Shown one piece after another: positions 956 to 33,265 of a stretch of DNA of 33,977 nucleotides. Both the position numbers and the translations under genes were made by a program. Every line of letters begins with the position of its first letter. Position 1 is the stretch's first letter. Source of the DNA: a virus (lineage: Duplodnaviria > Heunggongvirae > Uroviricota > Caudoviricetes); the IMG/VR virus record IMGVR_UViG_2563366805_000007; one strand, 5' to 3'. The notes under the pieces are model-generated. The model searched no databases. It was not told the DNA's origin and saw only the letters and a list, made by a program, of their open reading frames with translations.

Positions 956-1510
956 TTATATGTCAGATGCTGGGAATCGTTTGTACAGAGTTGAGATTCC
1001 GACGTCATAAATTAGGGCCACCCTCTGACGAGTTTCGCCAGCCGCTAACAATCTTCCAGCCTGCGCCCACTGTTCAGGTGTTAACTTAGGTCTTCGACCT
1101 CCCACGCGCCCCTCAGCTCGCGCAGCAGCCAGACCTGCACGTGTACGTTCAACAATCAGTTCACGTTCCATCTCGGCCAATGCCCCCATAACATGAAAAA
1201 AGAAGCGCCCCATTGGCGATGAAGTATCTATGCTGTCAGTCAGACTTTTAAAGTTGATACCTCGCTCGCGTAGTTCTTCCACCAGTCCAACCAGATGACG
1301 CATGCTGCGTCCGAGGCGATCAAGCTTCCAGACCACGAGGGTGTCACCTTCAGATAGCGTTCTGAGTACCCGTTTTAGTCCGGGTCTGTCTGAGGTTCTG
1401 CCGCTTATCTTGTCTTCAAAAATCAGCTCACATCCTGCACATTCCAGCGCATTACGCTGTAATGCCGTGTTCTGGTCATTTGTTGATACACGTACATAGC
1501 CAATAAGCAT
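956..1510 (-). CDS. gin: Gin-type serine DNA invertase (G-segment invertase)
   Basis: Translation MLIGYVRVSTNDQN...GDTLVVWKLDRLGRSM...MGRFFFHVMGALAEMERELI is near-identical in motif content to Mu Gin / Hin / Cin resolvase-invertases. The ORF-track start at 1546 is probably an upstream extension; the conserved start is MLIGYVRV at 1510. Confidence 0.9.
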   Translation of the reverse strand: MLIGYVRVSTNDQNTALQRNALECAGCELIFEDKISGRTSDRPGLKRVLRTLSEGDTLVVWKLDRLGRSMRHLVGLVEELRERGINFKSLTDSIDTSSPMGRFFFHVMGALAEMERELIVERTRAGLAAARAEGRVGGRRPKLTPEQWAQAGRLLAAGETRQRVALIYDVGISTLYKRFPASDI

Positions 1511-1527
1511 GGTTAAACTCACTTTAA

Positions 1528-1938
1528 ATGGCGGGAATAATGCCATTTGAGCGACTAACGATCATTATCGAAAACGTTGGTTTGGGAGAAGCAGCTAAAA
1601 GGAATGTAGGTACAGGGGCGAATCAGATACCTGATATGAGCCTGTTCGCGTCAAGTAATACCGCAACGGCTGCTGCGCAAAAATTTCCGTCTGGATTAAT
1701 TTTACAGTGCGGTCAGTTGAATGGCTCCCCGAATGTATCTTCAATATACGGGATGAGGTTCCCGATGACATTCTCAAGAGTCCTTGCTGTCACAGTTACA
1801 TTGAACGTTACTGGCGCGTCAGGGCAGCCGACTGTATCGGCGACAAATGTCCATAACACTGGATTTGATATTACAGTATCGCCCGGTTCAGGATACGGTT
1901 CATCTGCTGATGCGTATTACATTGCAATGGGATATTAA
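1528..1938 (+). CDS. Alternative tail-fibre variable segment (S-prime variable part), promoterless until G inversion fuses it to the constant 5' part of S
   Basis: The ORF runs through the gix site at 1565-1590 and encodes ...VGLGEAAKR..., sharing the GLGE crossover codons with S (...NLGLGEGS...). After inversion between the gix centres the frame is continuous with S codons upstream of 3448. Confidence 0.6.
1565..1590. repeat. gix-like recombination site (right boundary of the invertible G segment in phage orientation)
   Basis: TTATCGAAAACGTTGGTTTGGGAGAA is a 12-2-12 imperfect palindrome resembling Gin/Hin/Cin crossover sites. It is an inverted repeat of 3434-3459, conserved over AAAC-S-TTGGTTT-R-GGAGAAG. 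Confidence 0.75.
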
Positions 1939-3754: not shown

Positions 3755-4344
3755 CAGTTATCTCCTGAAGAATAAAAATATTCGTATGCTGTGCCGCCGA
3801 GACGGTATTTCGTCAGCACACACTCCAGTTCTCTTGCACGTTCGCTCAGAAGCGGTGTCATGACGTTATCGATACAGGTAAAACGTCCGCCGTTGATACC
3901 GATCACATCAATCTGTAACGTCCAGCGATAACGAGCTGGATAAAGGGGATACACGCAGCTACGCATGCAGTGGTGAGGCAGAATGACAGTAACCCGGATA
4001 GTAAATCCAAGCGCGGCAGCCACAGCTTCAATCTGCCACGGGGAAAGGCCACCTTTGCGGTGATACTTCTCCACGACAGCACGACGTCGGTCTTCTACAG
4101 TACCGCTTAACTGCCCACACTCCGGCAGTTCAAGGTATTCCTCCCATTCTTCCAGCAGCATAAATGTTGTTTCTGGCCGCATCTCCGGTAGCAGGTTTTC
4201 TGCATCAAATTCCGTCTGACTTAAACGCCTGGCTAACGCCCGTAAAAAACGGTTTAAATCACCATCCTCATCGCGTGACCACGCTTTGCCACGTGGCATG
4301 ACCTGCCATAAAGCGCCCAGCCATTCATCTACACTGTGGGCCAT
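3754..4344 (-). CDS. Tail/baseplate protein (Mu gp48-like)
   Basis: Position between the baseplate J-like gene and S; translationally coupled to both neighbours. Confidence 0.6.
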   Translation of the reverse strand: MAHSVDEWLGALWQVMPRGKAWSRDEDGDLNRFLRALARRLSQTEFDAENLLPEMRPETTFMLLEEWEEYLELPECGQLSGTVEDRRRAVVEKYHRKGGLSPWQIEAVAAALGFTIRVTVILPHHCMRSCVYPLYPARYRWTLQIDVIGINGGRFTCIDNVMTPLLSERARELECVLTKYRLGGTAYEYFYSSGDN

Positions 4345-5405
4345 GTCAGCACTCCGATAGTGATAAGTTCATTCTGAGCACAGGGAATGTCAGCGGTCAG
4401 ATTCAGCGTGTAATCCGTCACGCCAGATGCGGTGCCGATAGCAGTGCGAATCGCTGAAATGGGCAGCGTTTGTCCTGGTTGCAGCGTCTTCTGAAGCGTC
4501 AACAGGCGGGACTGGACAGCTTTACGCGTGGCCGGTGTATCCGGTGTTATGCCAATAATCATATTGACGGGACGGAGCACCAGTTCCACGGGCCAGACTT
4601 CTATTCCTCCAGGTTTACCAACCCATACGCCAGTCGCCGGGTCGGTATGACGGAAAAGGTAATCTTCCATATTTTTCCGGTCCTGATATCCGGGGGTAAT
4701 CACTGAACGATCGTCATAAACCCATGCCAGTCCGATTGTGCAGGGACCATGCCAGGCATCAAATGCCCACGCCCGACTGACACCAGCCATTTCTCGCGCC
4801 CAGATGACATAGTCATGCACAGCCCCACCAACGGGGGGATTGCGTTTACGGAATAAAAGCCGGTCAAGCAATTCAGAAACTGGCTCAATATCCGAACCAC
4901 CGATGATGCCTCCCGTACCCGTTAAACCAATACTTTCCACGCCGGGAACGGGGGACAGCAGGGTCAGGCTTTCACCTTCCGGAAGGTTTCCTGACGCGCC
5001 GGCATCGCTGGCCTGAATGGTTACAGTCATGACCCCATCTACAGGAACGCCGGAAGTCGTCACGGCATAAACAATACCGGTAGCGGTTTGCATCTCCATA
5101 TCTTCCGGCAGCGGTGTATTCCCTTTAAATACCGCCGGCCCCGTAGCAAACGTGGCCTGTTTTCTGACGACGCCTTCGCTGGCCGCAGTCTCAATGATGG
5201 TTTCATCATCAGATTTAACAGACGGAATAATCTGGTCTTTAATCCAGCTCTGATGGTCGTATAAATCACGAACCTGATTGCTGAATGAGGTATTTAGAGC
5301 TTTCTCAACGCCTACTGGCGGAAGTTTTTGCAGCCCCAGTTCAAAGGCAATATCTTTTTCGCCGTCAGTAATAAGCTTGCGCAGCGCGGGAACGTTATAA
5401 GGCAT
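4329..5405 (-). CDS. Baseplate J-like protein (Mu gp47-like)
   Basis: 358-aa protein in the baseplate module, of size and character typical of the Baseplate_J family. Confidence 0.75.
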   Translation of the reverse strand: MPYNVPALRKLITDGEKDIAFELGLQKLPPVGVEKALNTSFSNQVRDLYDHQSWIKDQIIPSVKSDDETIIETAASEGVVRKQATFATGPAVFKGNTPLPEDMEMQTATGIVYAVTTSGVPVDGVMTVTIQASDAGASGNLPEGESLTLLSPVPGVESIGLTGTGGIIGGSDIEPVSELLDRLLFRKRNPPVGGAVHDYVIWAREMAGVSRAWAFDAWHGPCTIGLAWVYDDRSVITPGYQDRKNMEDYLFRHTDPATGVWVGKPGGIEVWPVELVLRPVNMIIGITPDTPATRKAVQSRLLTLQKTLQPGQTLPISAIRTAIGTASGVTDYTLNLTADIPCAQNELITIGVLTWPTV

Positions 5406-5847
5406 TAGCAGTGGACTCCCAGCGTTTACTTATTTCAATCCGGAGCGTCGTTTTATCCGGGCGGGTTAGAATGACAATAAAATTAATTCGGTCATTGCCG
5501 CTTATAGTGGCTGTGACTGCTGCATTACGCGCATAACCAGAACGTAAAAGCGGTTGCATAGAAAGCAGTGCATAATCTTCCACCCGCATTCTGACGGATT
5601 CCGTCAGCTTCTCGCGATCCAGCAACCAGAGTTTCGATCCCCACGGATAATCACTAAATGTGTCGCCGGGCCAGCCTCTCGGGTCCGATGAGTTATCAGG
5701 AATAATGTCATCAGTATCAGCACGGACGTCGGTGAAAAGACAAATCAGAACCAAAGTGACCAGTCCTTCATCACGCGATAAACCATCATGGTTAATTGTC
5801 AGTTCACCTCTGGAGAGTTGATTATTCCAGCTGATACCAATAGTCAT
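5395..5847 (-). CDS. Baseplate protein (Mu gp46-like)
   Basis: 150-aa ORF overlapping both neighbours in the baseplate operon. Confidence 0.65.
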   Translation of the reverse strand: MTIGISWNNQLSRGELTINHDGLSRDEGLVTLVLICLFTDVRADTDDIIPDNSSDPRGWPGDTFSDYPWGSKLWLLDREKLTESVRMRVEDYALLSMQPLLRSGYARNAAVTATISGNDRINFIVILTRPDKTTLRIEISKRWESTANAL

Positions 5848-25415: not shown

Positions 25416-25739
25416 TTAATAGAATAAATAATCTTTGTAGCGATAGAGCAACCATCCTGATACCAACAAAAGTAGAATAATAAAACTTACGCTTTTATCA
25501 GTCTTTACTGGATATTCTTCCGCAGCGATCAATAAAGATTTCCTGTTGATCAGATACCAAATAAAAGGAAGTATAAATATACTCAGCGCAGCCCAAACCA
25601 CAGGGTGTATGCCTCTGCGACATCCTTTTCGCACACCGTCTCTAACAACATAACTTCCTATGTTGTTAGAAGTAGCATCAAAGAAAACCCAAAAAACACA
25701 TATAATACAAACTATGTTAATAACAATCACACCAACCAT
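25416..25739 (-). CDS. Small integral membrane protein (3 predicted TM helices), AT-rich accessory (moron-like) gene
   Basis: 107-aa ORF, markedly more AT-rich than its neighbours; ATG 4 nt after the mor stop with GGAG upstream; three hydrophobic segments; followed by its own terminator. Confidence 0.6.
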   Translation of the reverse strand: MVGVIVINIVCIICVFWVFFDATSNNIGSYVVRDGVRKGCRRGIHPVVWAALSIFILPFIWYLINRKSLLIAAEEYPVKTDKSVSFIILLLLVSGWLLYRYKDYLFY

Positions 25740-26151: not shown

Positions 26152-26675
26152 GTGCGCACCTTTCTTACTTTACTGGAATACAGGCTGTTGATGGCGTCAT
26201 AACCCCGATTATCCTGAAATGCCAGGTCTCGCGGACTCAGCGCCTCTGTCATTTCTCTCAGGTGCCATTGCTTGAGGCTTTCCAGCACCATCAGAAGATT
26301 ATCGCCACGGCACCATGCCAGGCTGGCGATACCTTTACCTTTGTTGGTTCTGACAGTCATCTTCGCGACGAACGAATCGAGTGAGGTATCGCTGCCATCA
26401 CGGATAAACCCATCAAGATGCATCTGCCGCCAGATGCTGCGGACCTTTGCGGTGATATCTGTCTCACGATGACGGCGAGCCGGAGAACGGGGACGGGTAC
26501 GAATGAAACCCTTATCCTCCAGTACCTTCAGCACATCCTCCAGTTGGCCGACTCTCAGGTCACGACAGCTTTGCTTTCCCGTCACTCGCATCAGTACAGA
26601 GCGGTAGGTGTCATCGTCCAGTTGTAGATTGCGACGGGCAACATGGATTAACTTAATCAGGGATGCGCGGCTCAT
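26148..26675 (-). CDS. gemA: GemA-like regulatory protein (Mu gp16 family)
   Basis: MSRASLIKLIHVARRNLQLDDDTYRSVLMRVTGKQSC... resembles the Mu GemA N-terminus (from memory); immediately upstream of mor. Confidence 0.7.
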   Translation of the reverse strand: MSRASLIKLIHVARRNLQLDDDTYRSVLMRVTGKQSCRDLRVGQLEDVLKVLEDKGFIRTRPRSPARRHRETDITAKVRSIWRQMHLDGFIRDGSDTSLDSFVAKMTVRTNKGKGIASLAWCRGDNLLMVLESLKQWHLREMTEALSPRDLAFQDNRGYDAINSLYSSKVRKVRT

Positions 26676-27324
26676 CGTTATTTCCCTCCGACTGGCGGTC
26701 AATACGCTCAATTTCTGCAATCAAAAGCGCACATGCTTTCACTAAATTTCGACGATAGTCTGACGGTTTGAAACTGTCATCATGCCAGTCAGCAGGCCAG
26801 TATTCTTCAGCCGCCAAAGGCTCTATGTAACTTATAGCCGCTGCGGCCAGCTCACCTTCAATATATGTGTCGTCCTGCTGTGTAGTGTACCCCTTAACCG
26901 ATATCTGCCGCTGGCGCTCGGCCAGAACATCAGATGCTGCTGGTGACAGTGAAAACGATGGAAGTGCGGCCCTAATAGCTTTGCCCAGATCGTCGTTTTT
27001 CTTTTCCAGGCATTCGATACGGTCTGCCTGCTGATTGATGTGATCGTCCTGGGCGGTGTTAGTGCGTTCCTGCTCAGCTATGCGTTTTTGGGCCTTGACC
27101 AGTTCATCCGCCAGTGTCCATTCTGATTTTGACAGGACGTCTATTTCACCCAGCAACAATTCCACGACTTCAAGAGTGAAACTGCGCTGGGTCTCATTGA
27201 TAGTTTTAAGACGATTAATACTGGTATCGGGGCCAAATGGCGGCATTGCTTTACGTTTGCAGATATCGTCACGTATCTGCTGGATATTGATAATCGTATG
27301 CCTGGTCATTCGCTTAAACTCCAT
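26653..27324 (-). CDS. Hypothetical coiled-coil protein (early region)
   Basis: Open frame 26653-27363; preferred start MEFKR at 27324 or MTRHT at 27309; central coiled coil; C-terminal region with conserved aromatic residues (EEYWPADWHDD). Confidence 0.5.
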   Translation of the reverse strand: MEFKRMTRHTIINIQQIRDDICKRKAMPPFGPDTSINRLKTINETQRSFTLEVVELLLGEIDVLSKSEWTLADELVKAQKRIAEQERTNTAQDDHINQQADRIECLEKKNDDLGKAIRAALPSFSLSPAASDVLAERQRQISVKGYTTQQDDTYIEGELAAAAISYIEPLAAEEYWPADWHDDSFKPSDYRRNLVKACALLIAEIERIDRQSEGNNDEPRIPD

Positions 27325-27398
27325 ATTTAGTTGCCTGCGGGTGCACGAAGCCCCGGCAGGCATACCGTATTAAAATTCTGAGAATCAAAGAAAGTTAA

Positions 27399-27926
27399 TT
27401 AATCAGTTACAGTTTGTTCAAATGGGATTATTTCAAAATCCTCAACATCTGATTTAATGGATATCCCTGCAATTCCCTTAACTTCATTCGGTGATGCAAG
27501 AATTGCCTCTTTATTAATTTCCTCTTTATTGCGAAGAAATTTACCCAGGCTGAATTTCTTGAGTAACGCAATAACATCTTCAACTTTGCGAATGGTGACG
27601 CTGGGCGGGCGCTTACGCCAGCGAACTTCGCCCGTTGTCAGGTTGGCCGTCTTGGTCTTACCGTCTTTCGTAAGCTCTGCACGGTTGGCTTCACACCACG
27701 TCTGGACGCCAGTTTGTAAGCGGCCCAGCTCTTTCTTGAGCGCTTCAATTCCGGGAGCGGCGTCGTTAGTCAGCTCGGCCAGTTTGTCATTCAGTTCTGT
27801 TTCACGGCGCAAAATGACACGGGTGATGTCGCCAATTTTTCGGATATCGTTAATCACGTCTTCACGTGACTGCGGAACGGCCACTGCCGCAGCAGACTTG
27901 GCTCGTGGTTTTTTAGGTGCTTTCAT
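27399..27926 (-). CDS. gam: Host-nuclease inhibitor protein Gam (Mu Gam, Ku-like DNA-end binding)
   Basis: 175 aa; ...VPQSREDVINDIRKIGD...GVQTWCEANRAELTKDGKTKTANLTTGEVRWRKRPPSVTIR...QEINKEAIL...IPFEQ tracks Mu Gam closely (from memory). Confidence 0.85.
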   Translation of the reverse strand: MKAPKKPRAKSAAAVAVPQSREDVINDIRKIGDITRVILRRETELNDKLAELTNDAAPGIEALKKELGRLQTGVQTWCEANRAELTKDGKTKTANLTTGEVRWRKRPPSVTIRKVEDVIALLKKFSLGKFLRNKEEINKEAILASPNEVKGIAGISIKSDVEDFEIIPFEQTVTD

Positions 27927-27933
27927 ATCAACC

Positions 27934-28185
27934 TCAGTGTTTGATTATTTTACGGTTATCCTGCTCCACCCTTGCTTTCACAAACGTGGTGACCTGCTGG
28001 ATCGCCATCGGGAAAATAGCTGACAGACCTTCAGCAACCAGAAACGAAAATGAACCATCATCATTTGTGTTATTAAGATGAAACTGAATATTGAGTTTCC
28101 CTTCAGGTAGTTCGTTATTAATTGATTTGTCACTTTTCTGAACGATGCCATCCTCAATGACAATGGTGATAACCTGTTTAGCCAT
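27934..28185 (-). CDS. Hypothetical early protein
   Basis: 83-aa ORF with AAGGA RBS; comparatively AT-rich; no family assignable. Confidence 0.5.
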   Translation of the reverse strand: MAKQVITIVIEDGIVQKSDKSINNELPEGKLNIQFHLNNTNDDGSFSFLVAEGLSAIFPMAIQQVTTFVKARVEQDNRKIIKH

Positions 28186-28189
28186 TGTT

Positions 28190-28465
28190 TTAATCCTTAT
28201 TCAGTAATGCGCGTTCAACATAAAAACAGAACTTTGTCAGAGCCACTCCGGCTTCGTTCTGGGTGGCTGCTTCAGGAATCCCCGGAACCAGTAGCTGCCC
28301 AGGGGCATATCCGTGGCGTGCGTAAACATTTATGACCTCCCGGAGCCGCTTGTGATGACGGGCGCTCGCGATAGGTAAAGCGCCTTCCGGGAGTGTCTGA
28401 CCAAATTCAATCAGCCCGCTGGCCCACGCATAAGCGATTAATATTGATTGCTGTTTCTCAGTCAT
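28190..28465 (-). CDS. Hypothetical early protein
   Basis: 91-aa ORF with RBS, coupled to its neighbours. Confidence 0.5.
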   Translation of the reverse strand: MTEKQQSILIAYAWASGLIEFGQTLPEGALPIASARHHKRLREVINVYARHGYAPGQLLVPGIPEAATQNEAGVALTKFCFYVERALLNKD

Positions 28466-28479
28466 AAAAAACCTTTAAG

Positions 28480-28770
28480 TTAGCTGTCGCGATAAACGAT
28501 GTTAAAAACCTGACGACGGGACATTTCCATTTTTTCTGCGATGATCGCAACGGTCAGCCCCTCCTTATAAAGCTCACGGCATAAATACGCATCATGCTCG
28601 TCCTCTGTACGAATACGCAGTGACAGTCCAAGACGAAGAGCGCAATTCTGAACGGACTGTTTTGTACGTCCCAGTTGCTGAGCCAGCCCGATAACACTGA
28701 CTTTCCCTGCACTCTGCTCAAGAATGCGAAGCTCTTCGGGGGACCATGTTTTACCCGTTCTCCACCCCAT
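28480..28770 (-). CDS. Putative helix-turn-helix DNA-binding protein (early region)
   Basis: Start MGWRTG preceded by GGAGG; two HTH-like segments, the C-terminal one (LTVAIIAEKMEMSRRQVFNIVYRD) resembling Mor/C-type HTHs. Confidence 0.5.
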   Translation of the reverse strand: MGWRTGKTWSPEELRILEQSAGKVSVIGLAQQLGRTKQSVQNCALRLGLSLRIRTEDEHDAYLCRELYKEGLTVAIIAEKMEMSRRQVFNIVYRDS

Positions 28771-28772
28771 GC

Positions 28773-29012
28773 TTACCTCCAGATAATCCGGCAACCTTCC
28801 AGACTGGCGACCCAGACGGAGCGGGTGCCACCGTTGTGTGATTCAGCAATGCGCTCTGCGCTGTTAAGCAGCTCAACCGGCGGGCAGGCAATCTCCAGCA
28901 GCGGGCGACGCATAAACACCCGAACGTCAGTCACGCGACTGCCACGCGCACGCAGCCAGTTCTGCGCCGCTTCTGCCATGCTGATGTGCTCTGCAATACG
29001 TTCGGCGATCAT
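28773..29012 (-). CDS. Hypothetical early protein at the position of Mu kil
   Basis: 79-aa ORF starting MIAERIAE with AGGAG nine nt upstream, directly after the B stop. The longer ORF-track version from 29090 overlaps B. Confidence 0.5.
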   Translation of the reverse strand: MIAERIAEHISMAEAAQNWLRARGSRVTDVRVFMRRPLLEIACPPVELLNSAERIAESHNGGTRSVWVASLEGCRIIWR

Positions 29013-29016
29013 GATG

Positions 29017-29955
29017 TCACTCCTCTCCGATACCGCTGTGGCCCAGCTCCAGCATGGCGGACTGGATGTGCGCCGTGCCAATGGTCTCACCCTTGCCCTG
29101 AGCGTAAATTCCGGCCAGCGGCAGGATGTGCGACAGAGAACGCAGCGCCCCCGGACGTCGGGCGATAGCCTTCAGCAGCTTGCGTTCGTCAGCGCCGGTG
29201 ACCTGCCAGGCATCGCAGAAGCTGTCCACGTCACCAGCGGAAACGGTATTGATGACGTACTTCTTGGACACGCGGGAGAACAGGCGGGCAAAATCCACGC
29301 TGCGCTGGCCGCCGGTAAGACGGTCATAGACCTTGTGGTTACCCACCAGTGCCAGCCCCACGCCACATTCCTCCTGGAGAATACGCAGCTCTTCCACCGC
29401 ATCCAGACTCAGCCAGTCGGCTTCATCCACCACTATCAGGCCGCGCGTGTCCGGCAGACGCTGGCGCAGCAGGCGAGAGAGTGCACCACGGCGGTATGGC
29501 GCATCGCTGATGCCCATTTTCAGGGCCAGTTCATACAGGGTCTCCAGCTCATTGCTGCGGGATTTGCTGGCGGTGATGTGCCAGACGTTATTACCGCCTG
29601 CGGCATACTGCCGGATAGCCTTTGTCTTACCCACGCCCGGATTGCCGTAAACCAGCACAATCGTCCCGGCCAGCTGCGCCCACGTCAGGGTGGCGAGGAT
29701 TTTCTGAGAGGTCGGTGTCTCAACGAAATCAGGGGCCACCGGAAGCGTGGTTTTCGCGGCGTTGTGACTTTCAAGCCAGGTATTCAGGCTGGCAGCTACG
29801 GTGTCATTGTCACCTTTGTATTTCCCGTTCAGGAACTGTGAAACCGTCGCGGTTGATGTACCGGTCTCACGCGCCAGCGCTGCACCGGAAATCGTCTTGC
29901 TGTCGATAAGTTCACGAATGGCACTGCGCACAACATCATGGTTAATTTGCGTCAT
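29017..29955 (-). CDS. B: MuB-like ATP-dependent target-DNA activator (AAA+ ATPase)
   Basis: 312 aa; N-terminal HTH, Walker A GNPGVGKT and Walker B LIVVDEAD; immediately downstream of the transposase. Confidence 0.85.
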   Translation of the reverse strand: MTQINHDVVRSAIRELIDSKTISGAALARETGTSTATVSQFLNGKYKGDNDTVAASLNTWLESHNAAKTTLPVAPDFVETPTSQKILATLTWAQLAGTIVLVYGNPGVGKTKAIRQYAAGGNNVWHITASKSRSNELETLYELALKMGISDAPYRRGALSRLLRQRLPDTRGLIVVDEADWLSLDAVEELRILQEECGVGLALVGNHKVYDRLTGGQRSVDFARLFSRVSKKYVINTVSAGDVDSFCDAWQVTGADERKLLKAIARRPGALRSLSHILPLAGIYAQGKGETIGTAHIQSAMLELGHSGIGEE

Positions 29956-33260: not shown

Positions 33261-33265
33261 GTGGG
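33261..33265. repeat. Right copy of the 5-bp target-site duplication GTGGG
   Basis: Identical pentamer to 886-890, immediately outside the CA-3' prophage terminus at 33260. Confidence 0.6.

Follow-up and report, generated by a model that had tools for sequence, protein, structure and literature searches.

A predicted kil gene, a Mu gp9/E8 homologue and two early gene cassettes between B and gam of a Mu-like Escherichia coli prophage

The viral record IMGVR_UViG_2563366805_000007 from IMG/VR (33,977 nucleotides (nt); the whole of this stretch is referred to as the window) holds a Mu-like Escherichia coli prophage of 32,370 bp at window positions 891-33260. We analyzed the four small open reading frames (ORFs) located between the transposition gene B and the gam gene of this prophage, here termed O1 to O4. 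The early genes of the prophage run along the minus strand from its high-coordinate end, in the order repressor (plus strand), ner, A, B, O1, O2, O3, O4, gam, an ORF of 218/236 amino acids (aa), gemA, and mor. All on the minus strand, O1 (79 aa) occupies positions 28773-29012, O2 (96 aa) 28480-28770, O3 (91 aa) 28190-28465, and O4 (83 aa), directly upstream of gam, 27934-28185. The gaps in the series B-O1-O2-O3-O4-gam are 4, 2, 14, 4, and 7 nt, and Shine-Dalgarno-like motifs (GGAG, GGAGG, AAGG, AAGGA, or GAGG) sit 7-12 nt before each ATG. Coordinates, gaps, and motifs agree with the first-pass annotation of this DNA, made from the sequence alone, which had described four tightly packed ORFs with ribosome binding sites.

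O1 was found to match phrog_2743 ("Kil protein"; E 8.7e-36) and to be 55% identical to Mu Kil (Mup05) over 74 aa, which is the full length of Mu Kil (E 2e-28). It carries PF26843 (Kil_protein) in a precomputed Pfam table, while a direct Pfam scan gave no match for O1 because the Pfam copy used does not contain the PF26843 model. The ATG of O1 is located 4 nt past the stop codon of B, and as the first gene after B and a protein of the ~75-aa class, O1 resembles Mu Kil in position, size, PHROG, and Pfam family; it differs by five additional N-terminal residues. Judged by homology, O1 is kil. Expression of Mu kil kills the host. The Kil protein encoded by O1 most likely kills the host or blocks host growth, and the host-takeover role that the first-pass annotation proposed for the cluster is supported by homology for Kil, with the support limited to this gene. 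Data on FtsZ concern the Kil proteins of lambda and Rac, for which the authors reported no similarity between the two or to other phage FtsZ inhibitors. The semi-essential (SE) region of Mu is toxic, as host viability returns after infection when the region is deleted (PMC3325207).

O2 is 46% identical to Mu gp9 (Mup09) over 87 aa (E 2e-25) and matches phrog_323 ("transcriptional regulator, D5-like"; E 3e-25). Residues 67-94 were found to match the Pfam family HTH_23 with 29 bits, above the cut-off of 24.6, in agreement with the earlier remark that one of the ORFs looked helix-turn-helix (HTH)-like; weak HTH matches at residues 14-43 were below threshold. O2 and Mu gp9/E8 have a similar length and a C-terminal HTH_23, but differ in gene position, with the Mu gene abutting gam and O2 coming after kil. 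The position of O2-type genes is not fixed, and in other relatives they are found on either side of O3. By these matches O2 and Mu gp9/E8 are homologues, and as a predicted HTH protein O2 presumably binds DNA. A literature search found no functional study of the Mu gp9/E8 family. In strain ECONIH5 (NZ_CP026202) an intact O2 homologue at 5243-5533 of the locus is unannotated in RefSeq; it is annotated in VREC0864.

O3 matches phrog_1518 (E 1.2e-34). More than 145 relatives were found in a large protein collection and a further 297 in IMG/VR, and the exact O3 protein is present in more than 2,000 blocks of a public assembly collection, where the places examined show the same or a closely similar gene arrangement. 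Relatives of ~50% identity are found in the Pseudomonas Casadabanvirus phages JBD24, JBD69, MP38, D3112, and DMS3, and more distant ones (45-49%) in Mu-like phages of Stenotrophomonas and in the Burkholderia phages KL4 and BcepMigl, both of which are not Mu-like. The family also occurs in Mu-like phages of Enterobacteriaceae (Escherichia and Salmonella). An alignment of 28 family sequences has 19 invariant columns, including WASGLIEFG, ARH, and LLVPGIPEA. The AlphaFold2 (AF2) model of O3 is confident (pLDDT 92) and consists of three strands, one helix, and a long C-terminal helix. O3 can be described as a compact alpha/beta protein, and its family is conserved among the transposable phages that infect gamma- and beta-proteobacteria. 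No Pfam or NCBIfam match to O3 was obtained, not even for the full set of 28 family members with the threshold relaxed to E<=10, and the O3 profile found nothing among PDB sequences, i.e., no solved structural relative.

The Casadabanvirus counterparts (JBD24 gp12, JBD69 gp14, MP38 ORF13, and the C-terminal part of D3112 "Gam") have the motifs WASGLI(E/Q)FG, PEGA, (A/S)RH, and LLVPG(I/V)PEA in common with O3 and are likewise located in the early region near gam. They differ in gene order: there the O3-type gene comes after gam, whereas here O3 comes before gam with O4 in between. JBD69 gp16 (4992-5273 of its locus) was found to be a distant paralogue of the O3 family, aligned over its full length (hhalign E 2.8e-4), and Casadabanviruses therefore hold two O3-family members, two genes apart. 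The gp16-type paralogue is absent from the prophage analyzed here.

The surroundings of O3 were compared across 80 O3-carrying loci from IMG/VR, on which the gene-order, gam, and gp7-family counts given below are based. O3 was located between B and gemA in all 80. Twenty-five different gene orders were observed, as expected from the first-pass description of an early, variable region of a Mu-like phage. In ECONIH5 and VREC0864 the order is kil-HTH-O4-gam, with O3 missing as a clean one-gene indel, while O4 is missing from relatives with the order kil-HTH-O3-gam. O3 and O4 are independent presence/absence cassettes in close relatives, which is the outcome of the presence/absence comparison of related early regions that the first-pass annotation had put forward. 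As a member of the phrog_1518 family O3 is, by homology and distribution, a conserved, mobile early cassette of one gene, and the cluster as a whole may be regarded as a mosaic of four independent single-gene cassettes. The first-pass annotation had stated that none of the four ORFs could be assigned to a family; this proved wrong for O1 (Kil), O2 (Mu gp9/E8), and O3 (phrog_1518).

O4 is restricted to one lineage. It matches phrog_18464 alone (E 7e-56), a PHROG without assigned function, and its relatives number 14 among 5.8e9 proteins. It was found in 10 IMG/VR loci and in none of 185,579 GTDB species representatives; the GTDB and IMG/VR scans added no new diversity to the O4 family, and tblastn against 50,697 phage records gave no match. 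Two extra matches from an exhaustive HMMER search were to repeat proteins (prealbumin-like and LRR repeats) and were judged spurious. The GC content of O4 is 40.1% compared to 52% for the prophage, which bears out the earlier description of the 83-aa ORF as AT-rich. Compared to ECONIH5, codons 10-36 are hyper-divergent and the C-terminal half is conserved.

In 28 of the 80 loci the place that O4 takes here, between O3 and gam, is filled by one or two genes from the Mu gp7/E6 family, and in 36 loci gp7-family genes adjoin O3. By transitive phmmer and profile searches the small genes between O3 and gam and Mu gp7/E6 were found to form one divergent family. Its members, 36 unique ones in the local set and 126 from the large protein collection, are all "hypothetical", and none has a Pfam match. 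Many enterobacterial Mu-like prophages (L006 and L040-L069 in our set; e.g., L040 at 4267-4837) carry, between O3 and gam, two tandem, overlapping paralogues of this family (90 and 97-106 aa), and one such prophage is inserted in an Stx2c phage. Mu gp7/E6 (Mup07) is the protein called Gnarl2 by Silas et al. in their screen of accessory genes (Nat Commun 2025; PMC12373910; bioRxiv 10.1101/2023.04.06.535777). When Gnarl2 is expressed in wild E. coli, the O-antigen bands move downward and the plating of phage T5 rises by up to 10^5-10^6-fold (PMC12373910). In motif searches of the library of Silas et al. Mu gp7 was present, and no homologue of Kil, gp9, or O3 was found.

Several observations connect O4 to this family. 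O4 is 83 aa long compared to 87 aa for Mu gp7/E6, lies in the same kil-gam interval, and has an N-terminal MAK-V-I-x-I strand and a C-terminal His; length, slot, strand, and terminal His are common to O4 and many gp7-family members. A local hhalign comparison of O4 to a profile of 140 gp7 sequences scored 15.6 (P 0.005), aligning residues 1-83 to 1-79 collinearly, and P was 0.005-0.03 for the gp7 family overall. None of 200 column-shuffled profiles reached this score (mean 3.95, standard deviation 2.25, maximum 12.4), and 9.98 was the highest score among 158 control families. O4 would be a fast-evolving protein in a slot filled by gp7/E6 (Gnarl2)-family genes in related phages. There are also points that weigh against the connection. 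No hmmsearch match was obtained between O4 and the gp7 family, a second hhalign run returned a probability of 1.6% (E 0.031), narrow gp7 subfamily profiles did not stand out among the 158 control families, and a sequence-profile ranking gave mild enrichment only. O4 differs from Mu gp7/E6 in having no sequence or profile E-value that is significant by standard criteria, and its AF2 model (pLDDT 53) is too poor for a comparison of folds; a Foldseek search of BFVD with this poor model gave no meaningful match. The Gnarl2 phenotypes themselves come from heterologous expression (PMC12373910).

On this evidence we give about an even chance to O4 belonging, as a divergent member, to the family of Mu gp7/E6 (Gnarl2). 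A Gnarl2-like effect on the synthesis of lipopolysaccharide/O-antigen is the best single guess for what O4 may do, and one that we would expect to prove right about every second time. Only somewhat below even do we place the alternative that O4 is unrelated to gp7/Gnarl2 and represents a lineage-specific orphan, recently acquired or arisen de novo, with another function or none of importance. The few relatives in proteins and IMG/VR loci and their absence from GTDB representatives are what such an orphan would show, as are the low GC content, the low-confidence fold, an HH-suite probability to gp7 of no more than 3%, and an exhaustive HMMER search that returned only spurious repeat proteins outside the O4 family. 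An unimportant orphan is harder to reconcile with purifying selection on O4 (dN/dS, the ratio of nonsynonymous to synonymous substitution rates, of 0.23) and with the conserved C-terminal half; slot, size, motif, and terminal His as in many gp7-family members speak for relatedness, and the full-length collinear alignment scored higher than any of the 200 shuffled profiles or 158 control families.

The first-pass annotation had considered the cluster a typical site for anti-restriction or anti-defence genes. Searches of Pfam, PHROGs, NCBIfam, and PADLOC, among which there was no dedicated set of anti-defence hidden Markov models, matched O1 to O4 to no described family of defence or anti-defence proteins (Ocr, ArdA, KlcA, Acr, Gad, Tad, and PADLOC models). 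The isoelectric points of O3 (7.9) and O4 (6.1) show that neither is strongly acidic as DNA mimics are. In lytic growth both proteins most likely bind host or phage proteins stoichiometrically, because they, like all four products of the cluster, are too small and motif-poor for enzymes; against this can be set the invariant charged residues R50, H51, and E65 of O3, which make a catalytic or ligand-binding role possible.

It appears unlikely that intracellular defence systems such as restriction-modification, CBASS, Gabija, or retrons are inhibited by the products of the cluster, or by at least those of O3 and/or O4. In favour of this reading, the genes are early, small, and accessory and have been gained or lost independently in close relatives, and O4 is in addition AT-rich with a hyper-variable segment. 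The equivalent region of Mu was computationally chosen as accessory and one gene there gave a counter-defence phenotype, and the products of the nearby gam and gemA genes interact with Gabija in one Mu-like phage of Pseudomonas. Against these points stand the failure to find similarity to known families in Pfam, PHROGs, NCBIfam, and PADLOC and the lack of acidic, DNA mimic-like character. The high conservation of O3 across Escherichia, Salmonella, Pseudomonas, Burkholderia, and Stenotrophomonas fits a conserved target better than strain-variable immunity, and Gnarl2, the one characterized relative, works on a cell-surface barrier and not on intracellular immunity.

A more specific proposal is contained in the annotation of the O3 family. 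Where O3 relatives in the large protein collection bear a source name, it is mostly "host nuclease inhibitor protein", and we traced this name to the D3112 record (NC_005178), where "gam" is annotated as a gene of 266 aa (1970-2770 of its locus). Residues 1-155 of its product align to Gam and residues 178-246 to O3, and the genuine C-terminus of D3112 Gam (ending in …IEDFAIVPFEAEVQ and a stop codon) is encoded in another frame. JBD24 (1469-2270 of its locus) has two separate genes, encoding a Gam of 172 aa and an O3-like protein of 93 aa, and a DNA alignment to JBD24 revealed a 1-nt deletion in D3112 near position 2434 of the locus, ~50 nt before the gam stop codon. The D3112 "fusion" and the composite phrog_18351 rest on a frameshift, because this deletion joins the two genes. 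We considered phrog_18351 as a Gam-O3 "Rosetta stone" fusion and rejected it on account of the deletion. As read from these sequences, the name of the O3 family is most likely an annotation artefact, transferred from the chimeric D3112 ORF.

Homology of O3 to Mu Gam or a Ku-like end-binding domain was not detected, as none of the 28 family members gave a match to Phage_Mu_Gam (PF07352). A gam gene was found within 1 kb of O3, on either side, in 51 of the 80 loci, whereas 29 had no detectable gam within 4 kb. In one such locus (L025, 3756-7292) a gene-by-gene PHROGs check gave the order B-kil-O3-HTH-phrog_846 onward, with no Gam in the early region. The genes following kil, O3, and HTH in L025 encode a 205-aa phrog_846 protein and an ORF matching a "nucleoside triphosphate pyrophosphohydrolase" PHROG. 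A dependence of O3 on gam was rejected on the basis of the 29 loci without gam, and the presence of O3-family genes in KL4 and BcepMigl likewise speaks for independence.

We regard it as very unlikely that O3 is a real host nuclease inhibitor, acting with or in place of Gam and shielding phage DNA ends from RecBCD-type nucleases. The proximity to gam in 51 loci would agree with such a role, and the retention of O3 in gam-less Mu-like phages would fit a substitute. In Burkholderia phage KL4 the O3 gene is an early-region gene with those for exonuclease VIII and RecT 1.5 kb downstream of it, and in Stenotrophomonas phage phiSHP3 it lies two genes upstream of rdgC. However, any gene in an early region of 2-4 kb is expected near gam, and the frameshifted D3112 ORF is the sole traceable basis of the name. 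O3 is without similarity to Gam or to known RecBCD inhibitors, is neither acidic nor DNA mimic-like, and a search of the literature found no experimental report on any member of its family.

The four ORFs are genuine protein-coding genes. Homologues were found for all four. Relative to the diverged ECONIH5 prophage (~80% nucleotide identity in the early region) dN/dS was 0.105 for O1 and 0.225 for O4, compared to 0.027 for both B and gam, in keeping with purifying selection; O2 had a dN of 0.13 with saturated synonymous sites, and O3 has no counterpart, and hence no value, in this comparison. Among 5,426 complete E. coli genomes, three have prophages with a 100% identical early region, and in the identical E. 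coli prophage RefSeq calls the same four coding sequences (CDS), each named "hypothetical protein". That some of the four are chance reading frames, as their shortness and this label might suggest, is effectively refuted by the homologues of all four, a dN/dS well below 1 for O1 and O4, the low dN of O2, the ribosome binding sites and tight spacing, and the same CDS being called independently in public assemblies.

A scan for promoters and terminators inside the cluster revealed no site above shuffled expectation, which fits the cluster being one operon. Within the semi-essential early (SEE) operon of the prophage the four genes would be the part nearest to B and be transcribed on a long early transcript from the early promoter upstream of ner-A-B, as inferred from Mu (PMC3820752, PMC3325207). 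It counts against this picture that co-transcription of O1 to O4 is carried over from Mu by analogy. The close spacing suggests that the four ORFs are translationally coupled.

In both Mu and the present prophage strings of small, mostly uncharacterized ORFs follow B and include kil, gam, gemA, and mor. The kil-gam interval differs, as it holds three genes here (the gp9-like O2, O3, and O4) and four in Mu (gp6, gp7, gp8, and gp9); the prophage lacks homologues of gp6 and gp8, and O3 has no counterpart in Mu. As a semi-essential early region it is ordinary, and what is new in it are further members of kinds already known. The explanation that best accounts for the observations, and that we consider probable, is a part of the SEE operon with kil, a gp9/E8-type HTH protein, and O3 and O4 as cassettes. 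Known housekeeping roles for all four genes, which the first-pass annotation had named as an outcome contrary to its proposal, were not found.

The genes flanking the cluster are clearly assigned. B (29017-29955, minus strand) encodes the transposition ATPase, with matches to Pfam Phage-MuB_C (2e-22) and AAA_22 and 47% identity to Mu B, and gam (27399-27926, minus strand) matches Phage_Mu_Gam (1.3e-36) and is 56% identical to Mu Gam. After gam, an acidic protein of 218/236 aa (26653-27363, minus strand) matches phrog_9763, for which no function is annotated; our ORF call and RefSeq disagree on its start codon. Its C-terminal ~100 residues match many other unannotated PHROGs, which suggests a shared domain. 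Just after mor lies a 107-aa ORF (25416-25739, minus strand) that is very AT-rich (35% GC) and looks hydrophobic in sequence, with no family match in Pfam or PADLOC. The same slot holds other ORFs (169-172 aa) in ECONIH5 and another relative (L011), as in a moron-like variable slot.

The prophage, with its early genes read from the minus strand, has 5'-TG at both ends and is flanked by a 5-bp duplication, GTGGG, at 886-890 and 33261-33265. It is inserted inside a galactarate/altronate-dehydratase gene (SAF and GD_AH domains), and excision in silico restores a single dehydratase ORF with the frame intact across the junction. A gin-like serine invertase gene (956-1546, minus strand) stops ~65 bp from the right end of the prophage, and there is therefore no room for com/mom. 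ORFs for a tail-fibre C-terminal part and tail-fibre assembly on the opposite strand beside the gin-like gene suggest an invertible G-like segment. An Rfam scan of the window found no RNA families.

Much of the semi-essential early region in Mu-like phages is unexplained, and the phenotype of Mu E6/gnarl2 is recent. The findings on O1 to O4 leave the basic picture of Mu biology unchanged and have two usable by-products, the mislabelled O3 family and the tentative link between O4 and Gnarl2. Counts of "anti-nuclease" genes in prophages are misled by the label of the O3 family, while O3 itself, strongly conserved, well folded in the AF2 model, and without a solved relative, is a clean target for functional work. 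Where Mu-like phages with O3 have genes between it and gam, this slot ahead of gam holds rapidly diverging genes of the gp7/Gnarl2 type, of which O4 is a candidate extreme variant. Should the link between O4 and gp7 be confirmed, it would extend the Gnarl2 family and provide natural allelic diversity for finding the target of Gnarl2.

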